Part shown: piece after piece, positions 1 through 46,008 of the stretch
Layout: every line of letters starts with the position of its first letter
Position numbering within the stretch: the stretch's first letter is position 1
Source of the DNA: Gonapodya sp. JEL0774
Taxonomy: Eukaryota
NCBI GenBank assembly: GCA_027604505.1
Contig: JADIIX010000021.1
Span: 1 to 64,000, forward strand
DNA length: 64,000 nt
Direction: 5' to 3'
The notes under the pieces: model-generated
What the model saw: the letters and a program-made list of their open reading frames with translations, nothing else
What the model was told of the DNA's origin: nothing
Databases searched by the model: none
Made by a program: the position numbers and the translations under genes

Positions 1-365
1 GCACAATTTTCGGACAAAGTGGCGAGAGGATATGTATGTATTCCTTAGAACTGTCTATCCCCAATGTGTTGAACGTGACTCATGGGGAAACCCTAGGCTA
101 GATTTGCTAACATTCTGAATACACATTTCTCCCAATTATTCAAGAGATTATGGTTATCTTACATCATTTCACAGGTTCATCTTGCATCGATTTTATGGGT
201 GGGTGAAGTAAATTACAGGGTGGGGGGTGTAAAAAATGCGACAGCTGACATCTTTTTGGTTTGCACTGTGGATGATCCCTCGGCAGGTTTGGGTGAGGTG
301 ACAGTCGGTTGATCATCCACCATAACTGCATCAACGTTGATGGTGTTCTGGGGGATTGAATTGTG

Positions 366-1141
366 TTAGCAAGAAGGTTGATTCCGCAGAAATGGAAAAT
401 TCACCTGGAGTTGCTCCCCCCTCTCCACTGCCTTGCCACGCTCGAGGGTGCAAACTACATCATTGACGGCTCCAAGAGTGAGTCCGGTGGCGGTGTTCAA
501 ATTCAGCCCCTCGTTGATGGCGGTGGCTGCATGCTCCGTCTTGGTCTGGAAATCCTTGACGGACGGCAAGTTCTCAAGTGCAGACTGGATGCAATTTATT
601 ACGCCCTTGTTCATCGCAGAGACATTGATGGTCCCGATGTCAACTCTGGTGTCGTCTCTGGCGACCATTCTGAGATGCTGCTTTGCGGAGCTTGCGGAGC
701 TTGCGGAGCTGCACTGCTGAAAGTTGATGTTCTTAATGGCCGTCACCACGTCCCTGGAGACTTGGGTTGTGTTCACCGAGACACTTGCTCCAATGTTCAA
801 GCCATCGAGCTTTGACTGGGCGGCCTGCTTAATAGTGGCCTCGAGCTTGTCCATCTGCTGAGAATTTCTGGTGATCTCCTGGGCACAGTGTGTCGTGAGG
901 TTCGACTGCGCGGACATGTTCAGAGTTCCGATTTTGGTTTTGGAGTTCCCTCCAAACACCAAGTCGGTGTCTTGATCGATGCTGGACGACGAGGTGCATG
1001 TTTGGCTTGGTTCCGAGAAGAGGTCTGTGGAGATTTTTGTCATGTCGCTCACGTTGTTGACGACCACACGCATATTCCAAAGAAATGCCATTTCTCAATG
1101 TGGCTCAATGGAAGCTGAGTGCCAGAGAAAAAAAGACCCAA
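366..1141 (-). pseudogene. Remnant of an NCLDV L1R/F9-like myristoylated membrane protein (poxvirus L1, iridovirus/marseillevirus lipid-membrane protein family)
   Basis: Intronless ORF 366-1091 has the family's repeated S/T/Q/N-rich helical pattern: QTCTSSSSIDQ, IKQAAQSKLDGLNIG, QQCSSASS, NCIQSALEN, QTKTEHAATAINEGLNL. There is no C-terminal TM helix and no in-frame MG start, but an out-of-frame (T)TG-G-L-F-F-S at 1141 fits MGxxxS. Recognised from memory of the family, not by search. Confidence 0.65.
683..710. repeat. 9-bp tandem repeat (TTGCGGAGC) x3, coding SSA-SSA-SSA inside the L1R-like ORF
   Basis: Directly visible: ttgcggagc ttgcggagc ttgcggagc. Confidence 0.9.
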
Positions 1142-2222
1142 CCTAAGTTTTTTGGTAGCACACTGGCCCCTGGTTGGTTTTCCACGCCAGGTTGTAGCAC
1201 CCCTGCTGCGTCTTTTGGCAGTCTGCTTGCATTGCTATTGCGTTCTCCTGCTCGGTTTTGGCGTTGTCGCAAGGGAGCCTTGGAAGATATAGGTCCCTCA
1301 TCGCTTCCACTGTCGTTGGAAACTTGCACTTTGGTTTGAAGCCTGAATAGAGAGGTAAATGTCCATGGCATAAGTGGTAATCATCATCGCGATCAGTACC
1401 AAGCAGAGCATCCTTACGGGGGTTGGAACAATCATCGCGCGCTGTTCAAAGGTGGCTCTATGAAAGAAAAAGATTCAGAATGCCAGATGATGAGCCGGAT
1501 CCTTCACAATTTTCTCTGAGTAAGGGGGTACGCCGTTCCGTTGAAACTATTGCACCGCAAATGCCATCACTCCTTATACTCAGAAGGCCCAAACCATCGC
1601 CCCCCTTAGTGAGACATTTAGATTGTGATTGTCGTGAGTTCGAGTTTTGTTACGCCGTCCTTATTCAGGTGGGTTCTCATGTGAAATTGTCCACTCAATT
1701 GCGAAGGTCCATTCAGTGACTGGACTTGTCCAGCGAATCTTCATCTTTATTGTGAACTTGGTGTGGCGTTACAATATATTCTGCATATATAACCCTGGTG
1801 TCGGCCACAGCACACAGAACTGGAGAATCACCGATTCTCATTTCCGTCTTTCCAATCCCAACACACATTGATTCGAAGTGGCTTTTTGCCAGGGACAGGT
1901 TTCTAGTGCGCGAAATCATCGTGAAGCGTAACGACCTGCCCTCTTTCCACCTTACAGAAAGAATCTCGGGACGACTGTCTGAAGGCGAGAGAAGGTCTGT
2001 AGTTACAAACACGGAAGAGCTACATCAAGTCCAAGGCTGTCAATGGCACTGGAGTACCAGATACTCGACAGCAGTGGAACGTGGAAGGAATTGGAAGAGT
2101 ACGATAATAAATTTCATAAATGGTGAACGACTTTGAGGATCGCAAGTCCAGCAGGTGTTTCAAAGAGTTTTCGAGATGAATGTGTGTTTTTGTACAGCTA
2201 TTCCAAGCGGAACGCTAACTAC

Positions 2223-2285
2223 TCTAGAACTAATCTAGAACTATCTCTAGAAGTATCTCTAGAACTGTCTGTAGAACTATCTCTA
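2223..2285. repeat. Degenerate 12-bp minisatellite (TCTAGAACTATC), about 5 copies
   Basis: tctagaactaa tctagaactatc tctagaagtatc tctagaactgtc tgtagaactatc tcta, immediately after the F-box ORF stop. Confidence 0.85.
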
Positions 2286-3200
2286 CGATCCAACGTAAAA
2301 GTCGGCCACCACCTTCTGAATCTTCCCACTTTTCCTTGTACGTCGCCCGTTGAGCTTGGCACGTCGAGGGTGCGCCGGCCTACTTTTCATTGATGGCTGC
2401 CTCACCAAAGCCAAAGACATGATTCCGATGTTGCCCTCTCCACGGGGGCAAAGAGCTGCTTTTCTTTTCGATTTATCCCTAGGGTCCTTTCGCCAACCTC
2501 GCCCCCCGCCTTCGTCTCTCCACATTGTCTTACTTGGAGTGTCCTCTATCGGAAGACAATAATAGTCATCGATCTCCCCGGCTTCGCAAGCATACACAAA
2601 TATCCGTAGCCACCGCTTTTCCTCGTGGAGCCAACTTTGGTGCGTCTTGACAACCACGTTAAGAGCATTTTGGAATATCGAGTTTTCATTTGGCCAATTC
2701 GGTTTTGTGTGCTCAAAGTCAAAATATTGGTGGCACGTCACGACAGAAACAAACACATCGAATTGAACAGGCTGCCAAAACTGATTCATGTGGTACGGCT
2801 CATATGGTGGCAGATAAAGTGACGGCGGTGGCAAGTTATGATGCTTTCTCTTTCTCCAGACTCGGCTGTCGAGGTCTCCTTCCCAATTGAGTGACTGTAA
2901 GATGGCTTTCTCATCGTGCCACCCACTGGCCAGGGTGGCGACATGGCGTATGACTGCAGCACGCCAGGTGGAGCACACGCGTGGGATGGCAGTCAACATA
3001 TCGATTGCCGGAAGCAGTGTGAAGATTGAGAGCCATATTTCGATTGGGAGCGCAACATTTCTGCGTCGTCGGCGGCAATGACTGACGGTAGTCCAAGTCA
3101 TAGGGGTGGAGTATGTGAGGTCGGGTCGGCGTCCAGCAAAGAAGAGGCTACCGAGCCGGGGCAAGTGAACATTTGCCCGCACCAGGGTCGATCTGTCCAT
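2283..3200 (-). CDS. F-box domain protein (apparently intronless)
   Basis: F-box motif LPIEIWLSIFTLLPAIDMLTAIPRVCSTWRAAV. The start may be the ATG at 3101. The C-terminal part is not recognised. Confidence 0.7.
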   Translation of the reverse strand: MDRSTLVRANVHLPRLGSLFFAGRRPDLTYSTPMTWTTVSHCRRRRRNVALPIEIWLSIFTLLPAIDMLTAIPRVCSTWRAAVIRHVATLASGWHDEKAILQSLNWEGDLDSRVWRKRKHHNLPPPSLYLPPYEPYHMNQFWQPVQFDVFVSVVTCHQYFDFEHTKPNWPNENSIFQNALNVVVKTHQSWLHEEKRWLRIFVYACEAGEIDDYYCLPIEDTPSKTMWRDEGGGRGWRKDPRDKSKRKAALCPRGEGNIGIMSLALVRQPSMKSRPAHPRRAKLNGRRTRKSGKIQKVVADFYVGS

Positions 3201-4555
3201 AAGGGTTCCCCTGGTCTGCAGCCTTGCGATACCAATTTACGGCCTCCACCTCGTCCTTGACCACGCATCTTCCAATAGTGTACATCACAGCAAGGTAAAT
3301 GTGTCCATAATCGTAACCCTGGTCCGCGACCATGCTATAGAAGCGAGCCGCCTCCACCTTGTCCTTCTGCACGTCTTCTCCCTTAGCGTAGCACACCCGG
3401 AATCTAAACTGAGATTGTACGAGCCCCTTGTTTGCTGCTTTCAGGTGCCATATCAGAGCCTGCGCCTTGTCTTTTTCTTGTCCTGTCACAAAGTAGAAGC
3501 AACTTTCCATGCCCCTGAACGTCTTGATGACCCACACGTTGACACCATTGGAACGCGGTTTTAAGGTCCTTTGGAAGTATCCCAAGTCCATTCTTGTAGC
3601 AGAAGCAGAGTTGATGCTGCGACCCTGCATGACCAAATTCCGCTGCGCGTAAATAGACTTGTGATGCCTTGTGTAAATCTTGATTGAGTTCATCACGACC
3701 ATGAAGAAATGACTCCGCCAATGAAAACAAACCGTTCGCGTCACTGGTATGTTTTGCTTCTTCAGCCGATTCAATGGCTTTTGATTCTCGTTGAGAACTA
3801 GAATGACATGTGATGAGAAGGCAGGCACACAGCAAATGAATATATTGGCTCTCGTGATTTGAGAAAGCGTGTCTGTGATTAAAGTAAAGGGTGGACGATT
3901 GTTTGGCAGTGGATCCCAGCACTGTCTCAAAAGCGATTCAAGTTCAGTAGGCATTTCAGCATCCAAAGGAACATCTGGTCGATGATGGGGTGATTATATA
4001 TCGAACGCAAAATGGCATAAAATTTGATCGTTGGGAGGTGACCAGAAGGTTCCTCCTTCCTCCAAAGCTGAATCACACGTATGGAGAGGTTTGACATCGA
4101 GCAGTCGAACGTGGCAACCTACTGAAGCTACTGAAGATACTCACAGAATATATGACCGTGGCAAAAGCATATATGTCGTCTTTCTTCGTCGTCCCTTCCC
4201 CGCGTAATCATTCAGGTGACATGTACCGCACTTTCCTCACGGGGTTCCCGGTTCCGTGAAATGCCGGTGCATTCAAGTGTTTGGAGTTTCCAAAATCTGT
4301 CAGAACTGTATGTTTCACTTTGTCTACGAGGGCGTTGTTAGGAGATAGATCAGCGTGGACGATCCCTAAGCTGTGAAGTACTCCATTCACCGGGACATGT
4401 CGAAAAGCTGGCAGAGATACCAGATAGTCTCGGAGATGATGCTTAAACCGATATTGACTCACCAGTAGGAGGATTTCACGTCGCCATGGTGCTTCATCTG
4501 ACTCATATCTTGCAAGATATTTCGCTACACTCCCGTACTCGGGAAACAAAAGCAA
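3148..4555 (-). pseudogene. Tyrosine-kinase-like (TKL) kinase fused to Sel1-like repeats, disrupted
   Basis: Kinase motifs LHSLGIVHADLSPNN, DFG, RYMSPE, DIYAF and CWDPLPNNRPPF. An in-frame TGA at 4208-4210 follows SPE. Sel1 repeats (AAEFGHAGSQHQL, WYRKAADQGNPYGQ) are split by a frameshift near 3520-3540. Confidence 0.85.
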
Positions 4556-4869
4556 AGAATTTTCCTCGATTCACAATTCCATACAAGCGTAACACTCATT
4601 TCATATTTTTCTCTTATACTACAGATATAGAACTTCCAGAAAATGTAAGCTTTATCTTGCTACCTGATTTATTTACACCAATTAATAGTGTGTGGGAGGA
4701 CAACCCACCACCCCAACAACACATCAACCTTCAGTCAGAATTGTTAGTGGGGGCCAACGAAATAGGCTAGTGCTGGAAATTTAAATTTTCATAGTGAGTC
4801 AAAATTATGATTTACAAAAGATTGATGCCTCATAAAAGTGAAACTTGAAAGGGATGGAGTCAAAGAATG

Positions 4870-6583
4870 CTAATCAAGTCTGATTCCAACAATCCCACCC
4901 GAGCGAATCAATTCCATAGCCCATTTCCTTGCATTTGCATACGATGTCACAATCTCCCCAGGGTCGTCCCTAAAATAACCAATATCCGAATCGGAAGGCC
5001 ATTGGCCGTCGTCTCCTGTGCTACCTGAACGCCCCAAAAAGTGGCTGGATACCCGCTCTTGGAAACTCTCCTTCCCTGAGATTTTAGTAGGTCCACTATC
5101 GTCATCTGGCTTGCGAAGCCCTCCGCTGCCGCCACCTGCACTGTCCGAAAATTGCGTCCGCTTCGTTCCTCGGCCGTCCGGAGGCTTAATATACTTCACC
5201 AACTCCTCCCGTAGCACAGTGATGGCAGAGCCACGGTCCATCTTCTGAGATGCGATGAGAGGACTCTCATCTCGTTCTCCGGTTCTCGGGTTGTTAAGAG
5301 TCAGCCAAAAAAGCATCCACCAGTCATTCAGGTCCGTGAGGACAATAAACGGCTTAGATTTAAACTTTTCTTGAAGTCGAGCCAGCGTCATAAGCTCACC
5401 ACACGCTTGGCTAATGTTGGCTGCTGCCTGTCCGACTCTTTTGACCTCTATTCCGCACATTGCGGCAATAGCCATTCCTAGTGCTGTGGCCGTCCTCCAG
5501 GTTACCAGTAGGTCGATCGTGCCCTTCACTGAAACATCCCCAATTTCACCATTAAGTAAATTGCCGTGCTGGCTTGAGTCGAATATGTCGAGCAACGGGT
5601 AACGCGATAGCTGGAGAACATCTTCTAGGTATTTCTTGTACTTTGCTCGCTGGGTTCGGTGACTCTCAGCAACATCCGCAATCCACTGATAGGCAGGAAA
5701 TCTACTGCTGAGCTGTCCATCCAGATCGGGGAACTCGTAGTAGTAATAGGGGCTCTTGCTCAAATCGAATTTAGATAAGCTAACAGTTTGCTCTCCTTGT
5801 ACTATATAAAAGCGTATTGGAAGAAAACAAGGCGATTAGAAAGAAGTAAAATGTCGGAGGAACTTAGATTCTCACTCTGCTCCTTTAATTTCTCTGGTAG
5901 TTTCCGTACTTCATCGCGAACTGTTGATATTCGTGAATTAGCATGTAGATGGTGTCAAAACGAGAGCGCGATTAATCTTACGTAGTTCAATCTCAGATGA
6001 AAACGACGGGTTGGCAGATGCTAGATGTGGAACCGAGAATGAAGTAAGCAAACTGTGCTCCCTCAGGCACATCTCCACGCAAACCGAACAAACCTGCAGG
6101 CCGGCGGACAACAACGTGTATGTATTCTTCCTCAGGAGGCCTTGGGAAGTAGAATGCGACCCTTTTCAAAGGATCCATCACATCTTCATCCTTGAACGCT
6201 TCCTCTCTCAAAGTGGTAATTTCCGAAGAAGGTACGTTGACTTTCCAGAGGTCGAGATCTGCAGCGTCAACATCTGAAAGCGCTCGAGGTCGCACTTCCT
6301 TGATGGCGGTCTGGAGGGAGTTGATTGACGCCGAAGGAGTTACGGAGACCTCAAAAATGGGTTTCTTCTCGCCAAACAGAAAACAGGCGAGAGTAAAAGT
6401 TGTGGTGGCGATCTTGGATGCTTTGAAAGGGCGCTGAGACGTGGACGGTGTTGGTTGAGTGTCGCGTGCGGGTATGGGGGTGGAGTCAGCGGAAAGGTGG
6501 CGCTTGCGGGAGGAGGAGCCCCGGCGAAGCGACTCGGGAAGGTCGTCGACGTCAATATCGGTGTCTGCGGCGGAGTCTGACAT
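4870..6583 (-). CDS. Crinkler (CRN) family effector with C-terminal PD-(D/E)xK restriction-endonuclease-like domain
   Basis: CRN N-terminal domain (LACFLFGE...LDLWKV...IHVVVRRP) in 5993-6658. The last exon has VKGTIDLL...IEVK...QACGEL...VLTDL. ATG at 6583; introns lie between ~6093 and ~5770. Confidence 0.85.
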
Positions 6584-7431
6584 GCAAATCGTTCTCTTGC
6601 TACAATAGCATAACTGAGTGACCAAAGTATCGGCTTGTGTTTGTGCTCTTCCCCGCAACGCACGGGGCAGCCGACCAAGACTCTTAGTTTAGAACGCAAA
6701 TGTAATAGAGAGCTTAGTTTTAATACAATGATAACGCTACTTATAAAGTCCAAGTCCTGGCCTCTTTGCGGCCTGCCCACATATGGTTGCCGCGGGCCTA
6801 GGCTATGAGATGTGATAAGTGCACATTCCCCCGGCAGCGAAGAACCAACTCTACATTTCGACTAAGCTAATTGCTGCTCTATACTTACCTAACAATTTAT
6901 AGCTTAATGGTTTTGTAAATATGTCCGCCTTTTGGAGTTGAAGGATTGTTTACAGACCTTTTCGACAATACCGCAAAAACGATCTCAAAGGCACTCTCTG
7001 CTGCAGGTGGAGGGATCAGTGTGGCACATGGGGCTTGTGGGTTCTGAGTTTGGCAGCGCGGTGACTCTAAAAACGATGTAACAGCGCCAACTGTGAAGTT
7101 TAAGCAGAGTGAGCGAAATGGCAGTCGTAATATGATCTTTGTTTGTCCATGGCGCCATTCATTCTCTCCACACACGTGACCACAGAATGTGAAAAGTAAT
7201 GAACGACCTCACTACATCAGTGGACTCTGTGCTATTTTGTAGAATAAGCGTTGCCAAGGTGGATTCCACGCGAGATGGGCATCAGAAGACCGTCTGATTT
7301 GATGTTGAACCTCTGGCAACGCGAAAACCACAAACTGCCCCACTCACAATCCACCACCTATCACTGCGTTGCCCTTTTCCAATCATATCCACTCCACTCC
7401 AGCCGTAAGACAACACTGACTTCTTTCTTTG

Positions 7432-9076
7432 CTAGCTCCCTAACTCATTCGCTCGGGCTGCGCAAGCGTGGAGAGAGCATCCAGCTCGTCTCTTCGTCAT
7501 TCTGGCGAGGTGGAGCTTCATTGCGCGAACAAAATTGGCAGGTCGAGCCATTGGACCGTTGCCGCGATAAATCACATTCATTCCGATTGAGTGCAGGTAC
7601 ATTTGAATTTCCGAGGGGCTTGCATGGCGATTAAACTGCTCGGGAACCATGATGTTGAAGATTTCAGCTTCTCTTAATTGCTGCTGTTCTCGCTCGTCCC
7701 GGTTTTGTCGGATTTCCCGCCTTCCCCACAACCCGAGATCGGATGTCGCTCGCGGATTAGCTACGATATGTTGTTCTTGTCTGATTCACAGCATTCCAAA
7801 TTCCTCCATACGGCGCAATCTACCCTGAGCACCGTCCGGCAAGTCCAAGATGAGAGTGACTGTCCTTGGCTCTTTTTCCGAATACTCACTTTCTCCATTT
7901 CTGCCTGAAGTGCAGTGAAGAAGAAGTGCAGCGTATTCTCGTAGCCATGTTGACAAAAAGGACCGAAGGAGCTTATCTGGCTGAGTCACGGCGATGAAAG
8001 TCTTGTCCGCGAACCGAAGACGATCTCCAATCCACCACCAGTTCCATCACGAGCGAGACGCTCCAATCTGTAAGATGCGATCCCAGCCACGTATCCCGCG
8101 TTTCCATCCTCGTCTAGAGTAGCGATAGCTCCCATCTTGTCCGTTTTCATTGCCGGTGATGCGTCTTGGTCGCCACGCACGAGGGACAGAGCTTGTTGTA
8201 ATCCATCGCGGTCCTTCTTGCCGAGACCAGGTGGGCGTGCCCCGCTCTTCATATCGTGAAAGAACGTTTGGTGCAAACCAGAGCCACGCTGTTTCAGGTC
8301 GCGACGAATGATCTCGAGCGGAGCAGGCGCCAGTATGCCGATAATGAAACGAGGTTGGTAGAATCAGTAGCGGTACCAGAGCAACCCAGAAACGTGTATG
8401 AATGCCCACCTGCGCGTCAATTGAGATCCTCTGACCCTTTGACTCATCCTTGGACTTCCGGAGGTCGGCAAAGTTGCCGATCCTTGGCGATGAGATACTC
8501 ACAATGTAACATTGTTCCTCACCCAACCACTCACCAATCATTGACCACATTAAAAGCATAACTGGTCCCATTAAAAGGTTGTTGTTTGGCGCCAACGGAC
8601 CAAAAAAGATGTCCGGTTGCACCACACACGCAAAACTCTTCTGCGCTGCGTCTGTCAAGTCCGAGATAAACTTCAAACTGATTTGCACCTCGCGAGACAG
8701 ACAATCCAGTGCATACACAATAATCCCGACAACAAATGGGCTCGCGAGACATATCTGTTGCGCCGCCCAAAGTCCTGCACACGCAACATCAAATGTTATC
8801 AAGTACAAACATGACGCTCCATGAACTCATAACGTTAAAGAGCTTACCATAACGTTGATTTGCAGAAGATCCATATTCCGCCGCACCGGATCTAACAACC
8901 TGAAACACAAACGAAGATACTCTAAAGCTCCGCTCCAATGCCCATTGGTGAGCCATTACAGCCTGATCAGCGAATAAGACGTTATCACGACGGTCATCGA
9001 CTGATTTACGGGCATAGATGAGCCAGAATGATGGCCGCTGACCAATGTTCAGTGCGGGGTTGACTTCGGAGTCCAT
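7432..9076 (-). pseudogene. Spliced serine recombinase gene with two tandem resolvase domains and a recombinase-like C-terminal domain; disrupted
   Basis: Domain 1: IYARKS (Ser codon 9002-9004)...DQ...RSG...RYG|LWAA (GT-AG intron 8775-8847 restores the frame)...IIVYALDCLSRE. Domain 2: DLRKS (Ser codon 8452-8454) KDESKGQRISIDAQ| (intron from 8409 to ~8313)...FFHDMKSGARP..DRDGLQQAL...YRLERLARD...FFTALQAEMEKVSIRKK. C-terminal: FGML...EAEIFNIM...SPSEIQMYLHSIG. Frameshifts or stops near 8040, 7986 and 7786. Confidence 0.8.
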
Positions 9077-9300
9077 TGAAGTTTGAGCTTGAAGCCGGCA
9101 CTGAACAGCTTGTTGAGAGATAGACGATTGCAGAGAGAGAGAGAGATCGGATCCCTTGATGATGTAGGTGAACGGGTAGCGCCGAAGGGTCTGCAAAATG
9201 GGTCAAAGGACACTTGGGCGTCAACCCATGGATTGAGGATTGAGGGATTTGTTATTGTACGCCGAGCGCCTTAATTTCTATGCTTTTTTATGCGTTCGCC

Positions 9301-9365
9301 GCTATCCCCCCCGTTCCCCCCGTGGGGTCTCCCGCTGCGCGGGGGCCCGTGCGTTCCCACCCCGT
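9301..9365. other. GC-rich hairpin and C-tract element between divergent genes
   Basis: GGGTC(T)CCCGC-tgc-GCGGGGGCCC stem at 9325-9348, with outer GTGGG/CCCAC arms, preceded by C7-GTT-C6. Confidence 0.55.
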
Positions 9366-9538
9366 ACCCTTTACAGGCCGATTACAGTGCTGAGGCCGAG
9401 GTTTCCGAACTGAGGTTGCCCAAGCAAACGAGTTAACGTCCATTCAAGGAATGTGGGTTAAAAACGAAGGTGCGATGTGCCCTTCTCGGACATAATCTCC
9501 CCGTCCACATCCCAGATTCATCTGAGTGCTCCCAGGCA

Positions 9539-11098
9539 ATGGCTGTCCCAGCTCTCCTGGTCAAGCTGCCAACCAAACCTGGCCCTTACTCTCTCGAATC
9601 AAAAATTCTGAATCAGTTTCCGGAACTTCCGGACCCGGACTTTCTATCTTTCACGCGACGTCCGGACTTTTCTGGGCTGTTGAAAATAGCGTTTGTCAGT
9701 ACACGTTCAACACGAGGACAAATGTACAATATTGGAGACGCCGTGGGATCGCCCTTTCCAATCAACTCCCCTATCCCTCCAGGCACACTATTCGCCGTAT
9801 TTGAGTGGCTATGCGAGCAACGATACACCCATGTCCTCCTGAAGCCGGTTCTAGAGAGCTCATTCCCTTGGTCGAACCCCGGCTTTTACAGGACTGCAAT
9901 TCGATCACTCCTGGAGCACGTCCACACGCTCTTTGTACTGGTGCCGGACGAAGGAGGGAACTATTTTGTGAAAAGAATTTTACATGCCGTGATTGGGGAT
10001 CATGAATGCAAGAGGTCTAACTGCAAGATTGCTATGGAGAGCTGGTTTGACCCAACCAACATGATAGAATCAATGCTGGTGAAACGGAAAAAAGTCCTCA
10101 TTCACGACGGCAGTACTACCGTGAGCAATGGCTCTCGGTCTATAACAATTATGGAATCGTGGAATGCCTACTGCAAAGCTTTGATAGAGACGAGTGCGTT
10201 CGTTGTCTCTGCCATGGAGTTAAATGAGGTGAATAGGAAGATTGAACTCCTCGATGAAAGCAGGCAGCATGGATTTGGAAGGGCATTCCAGATCGCCCTA
10301 CATGCACACAGCGATGCAAATGGTGGTATCGTAGACGCTCTGAAGAGCGTCTGGATAATGCTAAGCAACCCCTTGGAGTGGCCACAGGACGGAGATTCTA
10401 GCGTCGTTCTGATGACAAAATTCTTGCGCAACCTGACGGAAGAGGAATGCGCCGCCATTGCCGTGATTGATTGCAGTCCCGCAACTGCTCTCCAACCAAG
10501 CTGGATGCCAAACTTTAAACGCTATTATGCTGGGGCAAAAGACTTGATCCTGGGTGGTGCTGAAACGCTGGACAAAACGCTCTCACCCAGAGTGCGAACA
10601 ATCACGCCAATTGCGCTTCGGCTACACATAAATGATGAGAACAGAGTTGTTTCCGTACATCCAATTCCCAATAATTTCGAGCTATCAGCATCTCATTCCC
10701 GAGACTTGAATAAGATCTGCGAGAACAAAGGACTTTTTGCTTTGAGCGGAACTAACCCGCTAACATGGCTGGCGCTGTTCAACCTATCAGAGTACAAGGC
10801 CGTCAGTCGGCGTTTAAATGAAAGCTTACGGACCTGTAAGGTAGTACTGGCCTCCAACCAGACAGTGTCACTAAGCGGATCACCTGATGTCACAATTCAA
10901 CCCGGGCACATCCTTGTGTACATGGGCCGGGAAAGCGGTTCGTGGCCATTTGATCTTGGCCATGCTGTAATGGCCGTGCGCCTCGAGGATAATTTCGGCC
11001 GAGTTACCAAGGTTGGCGCCTTCTCAGCAGACGCGCCACTTACCAATGTGCCGAGGAATCGCGTCTTAAGCGAGCGTGGCAGCTGGACAGTTGAGTAG
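9539..11098 (+). CDS. Hypothetical protein, ~520 aa, intronless, unknown function
   Basis: Uninterrupted ORF of complex, globular-looking composition (ORF track 9470-11098; first ATG at 9539). No motif recognised. Confidence 0.7.
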   Translation: MAVPALLVKLPTKPGPYSLESKILNQFPELPDPDFLSFTRRPDFSGLLKIAFVSTRSTRGQMYNIGDAVGSPFPINSPIPPGTLFAVFEWLCEQRYTHVLLKPVLESSFPWSNPGFYRTAIRSLLEHVHTLFVLVPDEGGNYFVKRILHAVIGDHECKRSNCKIAMESWFDPTNMIESMLVKRKKVLIHDGSTTVSNGSRSITIMESWNAYCKALIETSAFVVSAMELNEVNRKIELLDESRQHGFGRAFQIALHAHSDANGGIVDALKSVWIMLSNPLEWPQDGDSSVVLMTKFLRNLTEEECAAIAVIDCSPATALQPSWMPNFKRYYAGAKDLILGGAETLDKTLSPRVRTITPIALRLHINDENRVVSVHPIPNNFELSASHSRDLNKICENKGLFALSGTNPLTWLALFNLSEYKAVSRRLNESLRTCKVVLASNQTVSLSGSPDVTIQPGHILVYMGRESGSWPFDLGHAVMAVRLEDNFGRVTKVGAFSADAPLTNVPRNRVLSERGSWTVE

Positions 11099-11104
11099 AG
11101 GAAA

Positions 11105-11200
11105 TTCCTCTGCAGGCAAGAATGAGTACCACAGTGCGTGTGTGCGCGTGCGCTTCCTTCCTCTGCAGGCAAGAATGAGTACCACAGTGCGTGTGTGCGC
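11105..11200. repeat. Perfect 43-bp direct duplication (11105-11147 and 11158-11200)
   Basis: ttcctctgcaggcaagaatgagtaccacagtgcgtgtgtgcgc occurs twice, separated by 10 bp. Confidence 0.95.
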
Positions 11201-12253
11201 CTGTTGCGGATGGAACAGCACACCAGATTGTTGCTATTTGTATTTTGAAAAGGAACGTGACATTCACAATCATGAAGCTATATCTGGACGCGTTTCATTA
11301 ATCTTTAAGCTCCTGAAAAGGACAAAGGTGAGCTGGGACAACTACAATTTGAAATCTGCTCTCAAGCACCGGGTAGGGCACCAGGACGAGTCCCCTGAGA
11401 GTTACTGTCAACTATGATAGTTTCCGTTTTTGAGCACGGAACGTACGGAGCTGATGGTTTATAAAACGTCTCGTTGATCTCCATTCGCGTCCAACCAGTT
11501 AAAAGATTAACAGGTGGTCACGACATTTGGGAGTTTCTAAATTGGCGTTCAAGAATCGTAACATTGTATCAATGCTATGCCACGGCCGTTCGCGGTGGAG
11601 TTCCGCATCTGAGACACTCAGAGTATTCGCTTTAGGATTTGAAAGGATTCTGCATCAAACAGTAGTGCTTCTAGAGTCTAGAGCAAAGGCCGGGTTCAGT
11701 CCCGACGAAAATGGAAGCCAGGATGCCAATCGCTATCATCATGTGAGCAAGGTTCAAACTGCAACACCGTGGAAGAGAGAAAATTCCACAATTAACGTGA
11801 AGTTCTCTGCGGAGGATTGACTGAGGACTTGCATTGTGATTCTTCGAGCCTCGTGATGAGGTTCAACCTGATGGGAATGCGCTCTTTGAGTAATTGAGTT
11901 GGATGAAGAGGTTTTTGAAATTAACTGGCACAAGAGCGGACGGTTGGCGAACATTTGATTGTACTTGAGAATAATTCAGATCGCGTCATTTGCCAAGCAA
12001 CCTGAAATTGTACAACGATGGGATCAGCGATCGCCTTTCCCTTGCCGGATTCCCGGTGAATCCATCTCCACAGTCTAATTTAACTGCACCGCTGCTGAAC
12101 CGAATCCGATCCCAAATTCATTCAAATAGATTGACGTCGAGTTAATCGATTCATCGCCGAATCGATCCGTTGTGGCTCTTTTGCGCGATTCTGAATTCGC
12201 GTCATTCCCTGGACTGTTGTGCTCGGAATCCACGCCGATCAAACCCACTCGCC

Positions 12254-36738: not shown

Positions 36739-39584
36739 ATGAATTACTAGTGAGATTTTCAATCGTTTCGTGTGATCAGCTCCGTGCAGTAAGGGCTTGA
36801 CCATTTTCATCTCGTGATGAAGCTCGCCAAGCTGGGATACCGTGAGCTGAAAACGACTATTCCAGAGTTCCGTAAACTGTAGTCTGATCACCAACTCTCC
36901 AATTTAATTTAAACAGGCCAGGAGCTCAAGCGTTCATGGGGATTCCTCCTCAATATGGGTGGGCTCGTGTAACTGCTCTCACCCTCCGAGTACTCTGACA
37001 TATGCGTTCGAACCATGCACCATATAGGAACAGGCTTGGGGTACATCGGTGTGCTTCATGTTCTCTGCTATTTCTTGCCCTTCTTCTGCTGATTGTATCT
37101 AACAACTCAGGGATCATTTCGTCTATTGCTACTCTGTACTCCTTCGCGGTACGCAAAAAATGCCGGGGCAGCAATGCAGCCTAGGGTGTTTGAACTCACA
37201 CTCGAGCTTCCACTTCATTATCCAGTTCAGAACCGGTGGTCCCCAGACCATGCTGATCGGATGGGTGCGTGCATCAATTCATATTTCGCATTCCACACAC
37301 AAAACAAAACAAAAACAACACTTACCTCTGCTGATACAATAAACTTCAGCCCGTCGCCGCGTTCTTTTGCATGTCTACCTGTCTTTCTATGGCCGAGATT
37401 TGTTCAACGTATCCTACAGCAGGCGGACTCTACTACTGGTGAGAGATTACAACACAATGCGCGCACCAGAGGGAAGCAATACTTGACATCTGCCATTTCT
37501 GTAAAGGTCCGCAAAGCTTGCATCGAATGGCTGGGGGCCATATATGGCCTGGGTCACGGTATGACAAAGACCCTTGTTCATACTCGGGATTCGTTCCTCG
37601 CTCAAACATTGGTTTTTACTAGGGTTGGTTCAACATATTCGGGATGTTGAATGGAAGTCCCGCAACTGCGTTGGAGTTTGCCAACATTTTCGTGAGCAAA
37701 TACCTGTTTTGACCTGAGGCGCTAGTTCACGTTAACTGTTCCCAATCGTGTCAAAAGGCATCTGCCGTCCAGCTAAACGACCCCGATTTCGTTCCATCTG
37801 CGGGTTGGCTGTATGGTATTGCACTCGTGTACGCGTTCTTGGGTAGCTTCACGAACTCGATAGGAGAGAAGTCGCTTCGCGCCTTCACTTATCTGGCATT
37901 GTTTGGTATCGGAACTGGGGTAATAGTTATGGGAGGTGAGTTTTTTCTGGACGCTCCCTTTAGCGCATAGATTGACTTTAATGTGGTGCGCATAGTCCCG
38001 CTGTTGGTAATGGCCCCGACAAAAGCCTCCGCATCTTTCGCTTTCGGAACTTTTGTGGACAAGACCGGTGAGTCAAATTCTTATGGAGGTGCCTTGCTTC
38101 GGTTCTTTCCGCCGTAATTATTTGTCACTTTAGGATGGCATAGCCAGGCAGTTGTGTTCCAGTTGGGACTGCTGTGAGTGAGATACATTCATGGCGAGGT
38201 TTCCACAGTGCCCTCACGAACTTCAAAAAGTCTTCCGATCTGGTGCTTCTGGGGATACGATGCATCTGCTCACATCAGTGAGGAAACCGTGGACGCCGCC
38301 AGCACGCCTGCGAAATCCATTATTGCCGCATTGGGCTTGTCCATCGTGCTCGGCTACATCTTCCTATTGATCCTCAATTTCATTGTTGTTGATGTGGATT
38401 ACGTCCTGGACTGCCCGTACAACGAAGACTTGGTCTGCGTGTTCTTACTCGTGAGCTTCGGTGCGCGCTGTTCCGCTTTCTCGAATCACAGTTGAGTTTA
38501 CCGCCAAAATAGGGAACCAATGGCAACAAGAGCATGACAATGTTCCTCACTATTTGGACGCTGTTCCAGTTCTTGTTCATGACCATCGCCGCTCACAACG
38601 GAGCATCCCGTGCCATTTGTGGGTGTTGCCGCGTGCTTGTATTTTAGTTCCGCACCACCTAACCGTTCCCCTACTACTACGCATTAATTGCACTCGGTCA
38701 ACACAGATTCTTGGTGAGTGCACTTGTTGTGTCCAGTTTTGTCGCCGCATCAGTTTCTGATATCAAGCGTTTCCTTTCCAGGGCAAGAGATGGAGCCATT
38801 CCTCAGTGGTTCGCATACGTTCATCCCGGAACACAGCAGCCGCTGAGGACCATCTGGGCACATTTCTTCTTCACTGCACTTCTAATGCTGGTTAACTTTG
38901 GAAGTACGACAGCCATTAGTGCTTTCTCGGCATTCAGTACTGTCGGGATGTACACGGCGTAAGTACATTTTATGGGCACGTCGGGACCACGTGATGAATG
39001 CGATTCTGTGCCTCCAGATACACACTTCCGACAATTTGCAAACTCATTTGGGCCAGGGACACATTCAAGCAGAGTGCTGTCAGTGAGTTGCAGCTCTGAA
39101 GCATTCTACTGGAACCCGCATATTATATGCTGATCAATTTCTGCGGCACTGTGAAAACAGATCTCGGATCTTTCTCTCTCATTGTGAATAGTGTCGCTAC
39201 TGCTTGGTTGGTTTACGTCATTATCATTCTATCGTTGCCGCATGTGAGTGTCAGACAAGCACTGTTGCATTTGCAATGCTCGCATTCTGACAGCCGCCGT
39301 ATTCGCAATCTAGAAAATTCCAGTCACGCAGAAAAACATCAACTACACCCCGATCAGTGAGTGCCTCTTCTTTCGGCGTGAGATGTGATCGTCTGGAAAC
39401 GTCTTCCCGTTTCTGAATTCCAGTGTTCGTCGGCATCTTATCCCTGATCACACTCTGGTGGGTATTGGGCGCCAAGAATTATTTCACTGGTCCAAAGCAG
39501 CACGTATCTCCGGAGGAGGTGGAAGCGTTGGAGAAGGACGCTGCTGCATGGGGTACGAAAGGTGGCGCGGCAGACACCGCCTGA
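36739..39584 (+). CDS. APC-superfamily amino acid/GABA-type permease, paralog 1; many small exons, start approximate
   Basis: LAKLGY, QELKRSWG, AEICSTYPTAGGLYYW, FWGYDASAHISEET, ARDGAIP and YFTGP. Confidence 0.9.
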
Positions 39585-43140: not shown

Positions 43141-46008
43141 ATGAGCTCCAGGTACGCACTCCCGCCGACATATTTTGTATTCTTTTCGCGATCTGACTGT
43201 CTCGATCTCCCGGTTGCGCAGCTCGCCAAGCTCGGATACCGTAAGCTGGAGATGACCGTTTTACAAGTGCTAAAAATTGCAACCTGAGCACCGATCTTCA
43301 TCTTTGAATAGGCCAGGAACTGAATCGTTCATGGGGATTCTTCCTCAACATGGGTAAGTGGGGTCTCGCTGCGGCTTCCCTTGCGCCGATAAATTTCTAA
43401 CATAAACTATTCGAACAATAAAAAACAACGTAGGAACGAGCTTGGGCTACATCGGTAAGCTTCACTGTTTCCACGAGTGCTTCTGTATTCCTGTTTCACA
43501 CCGAGCCATATGTTCAGGTATCATTTCCTCTATTGCGACTCTCTACTCCTTTGCGGTACGCAGAAACGTTTAGCAGCATGCAAAAGTAACTTCCACGCTA
43601 GACCATTTCCATGTTTTATTCTAGTTCAAATCCGGTGGTCCCCAGACCATGCTGATCGGATGGGTGAGTGATCTCGTTGTTGTTCTTCGTTGCTCACACA
43701 ACCCTCACCCGTCCGAAACAATGAAAACCTACAGCCCGTCGCCGCCTTCTTCTGCATGTCTACTTGTCTCTCTATGGCTGAAATTTGTTCGACGTACCCC
43801 ACGGCAGGTGGACTCTACTACTGGTGAGAATCGCACCAGAATCGCCTGTTCAGAATCGGTTTGATGTCGCATTAACTTCGACCGCAAATGTCCCGTGTCA
43901 TTTCAGGTCAGCGAAATTGGCGACTGGTGGATGGGGACCGTACATGGCCTGGATCACGGTACGAAAAATTTGTCCGGTGCGCACGATGCTATAGATCGAC
44001 CCAACCCTTAATCGGCTCATTTAGGGCTGGTTCAACATTTTTGGAATGCTCAACGGAAGTCCCGCTACGGCCCTGCAGTTCGCCAGTATTGCTGTGAGTT
44101 TTGGATCATTTTCGAAAAGTCACCAAATGAATGAATGTTCACGAAAATGCACCCTTTTAAGGCCGCCGCTGTGCAGATTCATGACCCTGACTTTGTTCCT
44201 TCGAACGGCTGGCTCTACGGTGTCGCCATTGTGTACGCCTTCCTGGGTAGCTTCACCAACTCGATCGGAGAGAAGCCCTTGCGTGCCTTCACTTGGCTTG
44301 CACTCGTGGGCATCGCTTCCGGAGTAGTTGTCATTGGCGGTGAGTAACGTAATGGTAATGTTCGGGCACACAGGGAGCTCAAGAACTGTGGGTCACACAT
44401 CCATAGTGCCGCTCCTCGTGTTGGCGCCAACCAAGGCCTCGGCATCGTTTGCTTTCGGAACTTTTGTTGATAAAACAGGTGAGCCGGTTTGGGCCACACA
44501 CAGCTCTTGTATGCGTGTTCACCAGATCGCGTTTGCGGTTGGCAGGATGGAACAGCCAGGCAACCGTATTCCAGCTGGGATTTTTGTAAGTTCACATCTT
44601 CCCAATTTAGTATTGGTATTGTTTCCGACCCTAGTGATCCCCTTGTAAGACTTCCCATCTGGTGCTTCTGGGGTTACGACGCCTCGGCCCACATTTCGGA
44701 AGAAACCGTGGACGCTTCGAGCACACCCGCCAAATCTATCATTGCCTCGCTGAGCTTGTCTATTGTCCTTGGTTACATATTCCTCCTGATTCTCAACTTT
44801 GTCGTCACTGATATCGAGTACGTTTTGGACTGCCCATACAATGAAGATTTAGTCTGCGTCTATTTGTTGGTACGTTCAATTACACATGCGAGCCCCATTA
44901 TTGGATCAGCCGTCAACAGAGATTTCCACAGGGAAGCGGTGGTAACAAGGAAATGGCTTTGTTCCTTACGATCTGGACCCTTCTGCAGTTCGTATTCATG
45001 ACCATCGCGGCACACAACGGAGCATCTCGTGCTATCTGTGAGTATTCACCCCAGAAAAGAAGTTTACGTGATTGCAACTCAATTCACCAACAACGAAACA
45101 CGTTCCACGTGTGGGAATGCTGGCATCCACCTCCAGATTCTTGGTGAGTTGACTTGTTGTACGCCATCATCTGTAACTGTATTTTCACCGCTTGACGCAC
45201 ACATTCACCCATGTAGGGCGAGAGACGGTGCCATTCCACAATGGTTCGCATACGTACACCCGGGCACAAAGCAGCCGCTGAGAACCATTTGGGTTCACTT
45301 CTTCTTCACGGCTTTCTTGATGCTTGTGAACTTTGGAAGTTCGACTGCTATCAGTGCGTTCTCGGCATTCAGTACTGTCGGAATGTACACAGCGTAAGTA
45401 CACTTCATCCGCGGTGACTCGACTGTGCGCTGACCGTTGCTAATCCTTCCTTAGCTACACAATACCAACGATTTGCAAACTTATCTGGGCAAGGGACTCT
45501 TTCAAGCAAAGCTCCATCAGTGAGTCGGTGCATTTGAAAGTCTAACCCACGTCCTGATTCTAATGGTTTCACAACTTGCCGCCCTCTATGAAGACCTTGG
45601 ACGCTTCTCTCTCTTGATCAATGCTGTTGCCACTGCTTGGCTTGTTTATGTCGTTGTTATTTTATCTTTGCCACACGTGAGTTTGTCCGGTGGTGGTCGC
45701 CTGTTTTGAGTGTTGAGAGACTGAACGAATCTCTGTCAACTTCAGAAAATACCCGTTACCCAGAAGAACATCAACTACACTCCCATCAGTAAGTGTTTTG
45801 CGGCAAAGGAATCTATTGTTTATTAATCTTACTTTGGAACTGCTGTCACTTCTTGTTTCCAGTGTTTGTCGGAATTTTCGTCCTCATCAACATCTGGTGG
45901 GTCCTTGGCGCCAAGAAATACTTCACCGGACCAAGACAGCATGTGTCAGTCGAGGAGGTGGAGGCTATGGAAAAGGAAAAGCTTGCACTCGACACAATCG
46001 AGGCTTGA
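43141..46008 (+). CDS. APC-superfamily amino acid/GABA-type permease, paralog 2; start approximate
   Basis: Same motifs and apparently the same intron positions as 36739-39584; exons are highly similar and introns have diverged. Confidence 0.9.

Follow-up and report, generated by a model that had tools for sequence, protein, structure and literature searches.

Introduction

Proteins of the F9/L1 family, as described in the literature, are myristoylated in the virus, hold a C-terminal helix in the inner membrane and have a role in capsid assembly and entry. In the published grouping (NCVOG0211; PMC10100723), they are cysteine-rich, carry a C-terminal helix and mostly begin with Met-Gly, and the members include proteins of SGIV, IIV-3 and Solumvirus; Table S1 of that source has nine non-viral F9/L1 rows, none of them fungal. 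The SGIV member VP88 is an anchor protein with membrane helices in the inner membrane and an N-terminal myristylation site, and it is 58% identical to ranavirus 53R (PMC10090177).

Giant-virus relics are widespread (PMC11244446; preprint 10.1101/2025.04.19.649669). In Gonapodya prolifera, viral genes lie in small islands amid host genes (PMC5294986), and a study of Mycodnaviridae describes capsid genes in 17 of 141 fungi, including two monoblepharids, with some lone viral genes on host contigs (PMC13533422). The main text of the latter does not mention Gonapodya, L1R or myristoylation, and its own preprint does not mention Gonapodya. Our literature search found no paper on the gene described below; it covered the supplements of PMC13533422 in part, and the strain may be listed there. 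With giant-virus islands in Gonapodya already published, the phenomenon is known, and the gene itself is the addition.

The window that we analysed is a 64,000-nucleotide stretch of a contig from the early-diverging fungus Gonapodya sp. JEL0774. Near its left end lie the following features.

1094..366, minus strand: open frame (from the ORF list) of 242 codons between two stops; its ATG at 1091 opens a Met-Ala start
474..1058, minus strand: predicted F9/L1-like (VP88/53R-type) ectodomain, ORF residues 13-207, with two tandem repeats of ~95 residues and four conserved cysteines
683..710, strand not given: perfect 9-bp tandem repeat, 3.1 copies, encoding a Ser-Ala-Ser run in frame
405..473, minus strand: polar tail at the position of the homologues' membrane helix, delimited by hydropathy and GC3
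348..404, minus strand: predicted spliceosomal intron of 57 nt (GT donor, CTAAC branch, CAG acceptor), used in an NCBI model
213..347, minus strand: predicted second exon of 44 residues, Pro/Thr/Ser-rich, GC3 0.50, equal to the C-terminus of that model
1124..1141, minus strand: TTG-GLFFS motif in a frame other than that of the ORF, probably not the original start
1143..1435, minus strand: possible second broken gene in two frames, with a hydrophobic N-terminus (ATG 1435, hydropathy 2.16) and a Cys-rich stretch of ~65 residues

Compared with SGIV VP88 and ranavirus 53R (PDB 8hif_y4), the ORF is alike in the ectodomain, a cysteine-bearing stretch of about 200 residues, but it lacks both the Met-Gly start and the C-terminal helix and has a 9-bp expansion, a predicted intron and a foreign second exon. 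Unlike the iridovirus form, it sits in a eukaryotic chromosome. Poxvirus L1/F9 (PF02442) and ASFV pE248R belong to the same family by the published grouping (PMC10100723), although the ORF has four cysteines where vaccinia L1 has six and gives no direct profile match to PF02442. It shares with the giant-virus relics reported from zoosporic fungi both the fungal group and a setting of eukaryotic genes around a viral one; the lone cases described there are capsid genes, whereas this one is a membrane-anchor gene and not a capsid, PolB or chitinase gene. Its best-ranked named matches are iridovirus- and pithovirus-like. The ORF lacks both membrane anchors, and we put at about 65% the probability that it is a small and decaying remnant of giant-virus DNA that entered the fungal chromosome.

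Results

The open frame encodes a predicted F9/L1-like ectodomain

Direct searches with the ORF returned little. Pfam, including PF02442, gave no match at E up to 1, so the HMM check proposed in an earlier note on this DNA came back negative. PF02442 was equally silent on all 12 of the homologues scanned (see below); because neither the ORF nor these proteins score, we conclude that this branch lies outside the reach of the model. Sequence searches of NCBIfam and the PDB gave nothing, and PHROGs gave three weak rows (E 0.026 or worse). A word-indexed search of 5.8 billion proteins recovered a sole record, the hypothetical protein HDU93_003520 of Gonapodya sp. JEL0774 (P0001 here), whose cluster has one member. 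With phmmer, 1.84 billion representatives yielded 13 matches at E up to 0.001, comprising P0001 and 12 metagenomic proteins (E 2.6e-10 to 8.9e-4, identity 22-34%). An alignment-based word-indexed search added one new protein, and the homologue set used here consists of the 12 metagenomic proteins plus three from further searches. No locus came from scans of IMG/VR or from scanning a metagenome with the ORF. The one GTDB match (L003, 41% over 48 residues) was dropped, as the frame that contains it exceeds 2,000 residues and is not recognised by the family profile. In a tree of 14 rows the window protein was left unplaced.

A profile built from the first 13 sequences, query included, had SGIV VP88 as its sole significant PDB match (E 2.1e-29, residues 1-209). 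When the profile was built without the query and run on 1,918 window pieces, the ORF scored 114 bits (E 7.7e-34), with a runner-up at E 2.8; its reversed sequence scored -5.7, and of 1,000 shuffles (995 scored) none exceeded 10.2. The 114 bits are inflated, since the homologues had been selected by likeness to the query, and the family name therefore rests on the VP88 match.

The cysteine spacing and the GLN / C..SS / CIQ / EG motifs that had first drawn attention to the frame align to the family profile across ORF residues 13-207. The cysteine codons begin at 998, 887, 713 and 593 (residues 32, 69, 127 and 167 from ATG 1091) and align with cysteines in 13, 14, 12 and 12 of the 15 homologues, respectively. 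The conserved cysteines include the last pair, as in the family, and any disulfides among them are putative. The two halves of the ectodomain share 26% identity over 98 residues (E 1e-9), with two cysteines in each repeat. The stretch at 474-1058 (minus) is an internal tandem duplication with a unit of ~95 residues, which may apply family-wide.

A language-model search (ESM Atlas) returned 30 matches, of which the four listed fall in clusters that are 98-100% viral (top score 0.90, low recognition); one of these four, at rank 9, is a cluster with PF02442 on 13% of its members. We treat this search as a lead that agrees with the F9/L1 family. Structure prediction gave a single-sequence model that was unusable (pLDDT 36.8) and an alignment-based model of low confidence (pLDDT 41.3). 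Against viral models, Foldseek, which also uses sequence and is not fully independent of the profile evidence, had a Solumvirus protein as its top match (E 2.4e-4, TM 0.70) and the sole one at E up to 0.001. Iridovirus 118R was third and the IIV-3 'myristoylated protein 006R' fifth, ranks 2, 4, 6 and 7 being nameless; farther down came ASFV pE248R (rank 15, E 0.52) and a pair of pithovirus lipid membrane proteins, in the range E 0.5-0.9. We take the SGIV and IIV-3 rows of the published F9/L1 table to be VP88 and 006R, from the order of the accessions. The L1 fold is a helical bundle set against beta-sheets. Against the PDB, Foldseek with the low-confidence model found nothing, and in a fold comparison with the same model (pLDDT 41.3) VP88 came sixth (Z 6.6, rmsd 4.2, 116 aligned) and did not outscore bundles of unrelated proteins. 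Poxvirus L1 was absent among the PDB fold matches listed.

Taken together, profile, fold and language-model searches agree with the original call of an L1R-like NCLDV entry protein, and none of them brought up a competing cellular family: the named close matches are viral. Sequence comparison thus assigns the ORF to the F9/L1-like virion membrane proteins of Nucleocytoviricota, the closest form in these searches being that of iridoviruses, pithoviruses and Solumvirus rather than poxvirus L1.

Two of the contigs that carry homologues fit a giant virus: one is gene-dense with a GC content of 31%, and the second also encodes TFIIS and thymidylate synthase. No hallmark gene tying the homologues' contigs to a named virus family was found. 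Two other homologues lie on contigs of 200,592 and 191,336 bases. On contig L001, two large Cys-rich proteins (5780-7855, minus; 8750-9826, plus) flank the homologue, one of them head to head. The layout resembles that of an F9/L1 gene paired with A16/G9/J5, and a motif in the Cys-rich neighbour pointed the same way. As an A16/G9/J5 partner, this neighbour was unsupported by Pfam or PDB and was set aside.

Both membrane anchors are absent

All 15 homologues have a hydrophobic helix, with a best 19-residue hydropathy of 2.24-3.74, compared with 1.04 in both the ORF and the spliced P0001. No membrane helix occurs in any minus frame from 520 to 1. The C-terminal transmembrane segment is therefore missing, as had been claimed. 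The myristoylation motif is gone as well: 12 of the 15 homologues start with Met-Gly, 11 of the 15 having Ser or Thr at position 6 too, whereas the in-frame start of the ORF reads Met-Ala.

An out-of-frame GLFFS had been offered as a remnant of the old start. The motif is present at 1141, with TTG in place of ATG, but its role as the original start is doubtful on three counts: its frame, the cysteine spacing and the rate at which such motifs arise. It stands 143 nt ahead of the first cysteine, about 19 codons too far upstream, as the first cysteine is at residue 28-30 in 12 of the 15 homologues and at residue 32 when counted from ATG 1091. By chance, a near-ATG G..[ST] motif turns up in roughly 12% of stretches of 100 nt. 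We also rejected the idea that an intron connects GLFFS with the main frame, as no donor or branch motif was found between 1141 and 1060.

At the other end, GC3 falls from 0.72 in the ORF core, which exceeds all 11 host frames measured (0.49-0.67), to 0.60 in 405..473 and 0.50 in the second exon. Because of this drop, the viral sequence is suggested to end near 474-405, and we infer that 405..473 is either the virus-to-host junction or a decayed helix. The ectodomain frame is open for about 195 codons and keeps all four cysteines in a sequence rich in Ser, Thr and Asn. The 9-bp repeat, which coincides with a 3-residue insertion relative to the family profile, is likely a slippage expansion, as the earlier note had it. 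We conclude that the ORF is a derived, anchorless homologue rather than a working F9/L1 member.

Upstream of it, the frames at 1143..1435 run to a stop 51 nt before ATG 1091, with a GC3 (0.63-0.65) similar to that of the viral gene. Pfam, NCBIfam, PHROGs and further homology searches found no homologue of these frames, which are possibly a second broken viral membrane protein.

A probable relic among host genes

In the reading that we prefer, a short piece of giant-virus DNA, holding the gene of the ORF and perhaps 1143-1435 too, would have integrated during infection. Its anchor-coding end would then have been lost through truncation or decay while small lesions gathered, and the viral frame would now continue into an intron and exon of host type. 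A protein made from it would be soluble, with no means of anchoring a capsid or doing its viral job. Against the relic reading count the lack of a direct PF02442 or PDB match to the ORF and the low confidence of both models, and the unbroken domain of ~195 codons, the intron-covered stop and the lack of excess CpG loss would fit a live gene equally well.

The surroundings were surveyed with a Pfam scan of 419 window frames, comprising all frames of at least 110 codons, every frame of 45-109 codons within the first 12.5 kb, and beyond 12.5 kb 149 of the 171 frames of 75-109 codons (the 22 omitted lie in or over scanned long frames or the window end). The matches are eukaryotic: F-box, Sel1, kinase, Crinkler, P450, permeases, pseudouridine synthase, haspin, beta-lactamase-like and LRR, and the host families begin at 2.3 kb. 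Pfam presumably includes models for the capsid, A32, PolB and VLTF3 families. The check for MCP, A32, PolB and VLTF3 suggested earlier found none of them, nor D5, among the 419 frames, all of which lie in the window from base 1 rightward, and no A16/G9/J5 partner was detected beside the ORF. The GC content of positions 1-2000 (0.49) shows no shift against the rest of the window (0.46-0.58), and the window has no gene-dense, intron-poor block with shifted GC of the kind that marks a giant endogenous viral element.

Several features of these surroundings deserve description in their own right. A 12-bp tandem repeat of 5.9 copies (2217-2285) separates the viral piece from the end of an F-box gene. 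At 2283-4570 (minus), this gene is accompanied by fragments of a kinase / Sel1-repeat gene in several frames, a region of expanded gene families. At 4870-6688 (minus), a Crinkler N-terminal domain (E 1.8e-19) is followed by a 321-codon frame free of Pfam matches that is likely its C-terminal part. A 553-codon unbroken frame at 9437-11098 (plus) has no Pfam, NCBIfam or PHROG match and is followed by a 46-nt direct repeat at 11105-11203. Farther along, two amino-acid permease genes with the same profile positions (38178-38959 and 44483-45394, plus) are apparently a local duplication.

A run of broken frames at 7285-9250 (minus) contains a His..Gly-Trp-Ser stretch and is presumably the recombinase that the earlier note would have derived from the same insertion. 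The stretch is reminiscent of the tyrosine recombinases of DIRS/Crypton-type elements. The frames at 7.3-9.2 kb have no Pfam match, the one frame searched against the PDB gave none, and F-box, Sel1/kinase and Crinkler genes separate them from the viral gene. We find no reason to make the insertion the source of the recombinase.

The first alternative is that a larger endogenous giant-virus island extends left of the window and that the ORF marks its right-hand end. The gene does lie within 0.4 kb of the window start, the contig of P0001 is 205,892 bases long, and mosaic islands of up to about 350 kb are described in zoosporic fungi (PMC13533422). Among 42 blocks, the first 1.5 kb also ranks lowest in CpG ratio (0.69, against a median of 0.95). 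However, this signal disappears in a codon-aware test, in which the ORF (0.87) shows no excess loss compared with 11 host frames (0.71-1.01), and we accordingly dropped CpG decay as proof of silencing. Moreover, both the homology and the high GC3 end near 474, and bases 1-404 have an intron pattern, a GC3 of 0.50 and no Pfam match. We consider a larger island unlikely. Of the degraded viral insertion that had been proposed, the viral origin remains likely, in keeping with the species label of P0001 and the published islands of Gonapodya prolifera; a larger insertion is unsupported, given the end of homology near 474, the intron- and host-like bases 1-404 and the lack of viral hallmark families among the 419 frames.

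A predicted intron and second exon

The ORF had been described as intronless, yet its stop lies in a canonical-looking intron. P0001 is identical, letter for letter, to the translation of 1091-405 plus 347-216, which means that the NCBI model removes the 57 nt at 404..348, and the TAA stop of the ORF falls inside the CTAAC branch motif. Judged from these signals, the intron is plausible. The second exon has neither family homology nor a Pfam match. A frame-keeping intron pattern spans just 4 of the 995 TAA sites in the window, a post hoc count, and across the window a looser pattern shows no enrichment (21 cases; shuffled sequences average 16.3, with a maximum of 22).

These observations bear on a second alternative, in which the viral ectodomain has been taken over by the host as a two-exon, spliced gene whose soluble product would bind capsid or entry partners and interfere with an infecting giant virus. 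The domain is unbroken and keeps its four cysteines with both anchors gone, the NCBI model splices the rare frame-keeping intron, and the crown domain of VP88 touches the major capsid proteins (PMC10090177). Against this, no orthologue from another fungus is present among the 13 phmmer matches or in the word-indexed searches, and the cluster has a single member. A young relic would be expected to keep an open frame in any case, the adjoining frame is broken, and the NCBI model may be an unverified prediction of an intron whose pattern is not enriched. We therefore hold co-option to be quite unlikely. Its boldest version, that the fungus has made a giant-virus anchor protein its own spliced gene, keeping the capsid-contacting domain as a soluble decoy against giant-virus assembly, with a donor lineage that may be iridovirus- or pithovirus-like and separate from the Mycodnaviridae, is a long shot.

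Remaining alternatives

An assembly chimera, or a contaminant from a free virus in the culture, is very unlikely. There is a published caution that some non-viral F9/L1 records may be contamination (PMC10100723), but the GC content of the viral piece (0.53) matches that of host frames (0.50-0.58) and the record sits on a long contig. Lost anchors, a repeat expansion and a broken neighbour are also unlike a working virus gene. That the ORF is an ordinary fungal orphan gene with a compositional likeness to viruses, as its Ser/Thr/Asn-rich sequence, the blank Pfam and NCBIfam results and the weak PHROG rows might suggest, is hardly tenable and largely refuted by the profile evidence, given shuffled and reversed controls of at most 10.2 bits against 114, matching cysteine positions and internal repeat, and named close matches that are all viral.

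Discussion

Our preferred reading, a small and decaying relic of giant-virus DNA in a host chromosome, extends the known traces of giant-virus infection in zoosporic fungi by a gene for a virion membrane protein. This gene is invisible both to Pfam and to capsid-based screens, which implies that such screens undercount relics. Iridovirus-like L1/F9 proteins are also described in a nucleus-dependent order (preprint 10.64898/2026.08.29.747986), making that order another possible donor. As a lone broken gene, the ORF is a modest addition to a known phenomenon. If its donor was iridovirus- or pithovirus-like, a wider range of giant-virus groups would have infected fungi, and if the two-exon form proves to be both conserved and expressed, it would represent a giant-virus structural gene co-opted by its host and a testable candidate for fungal immunity of viral origin.
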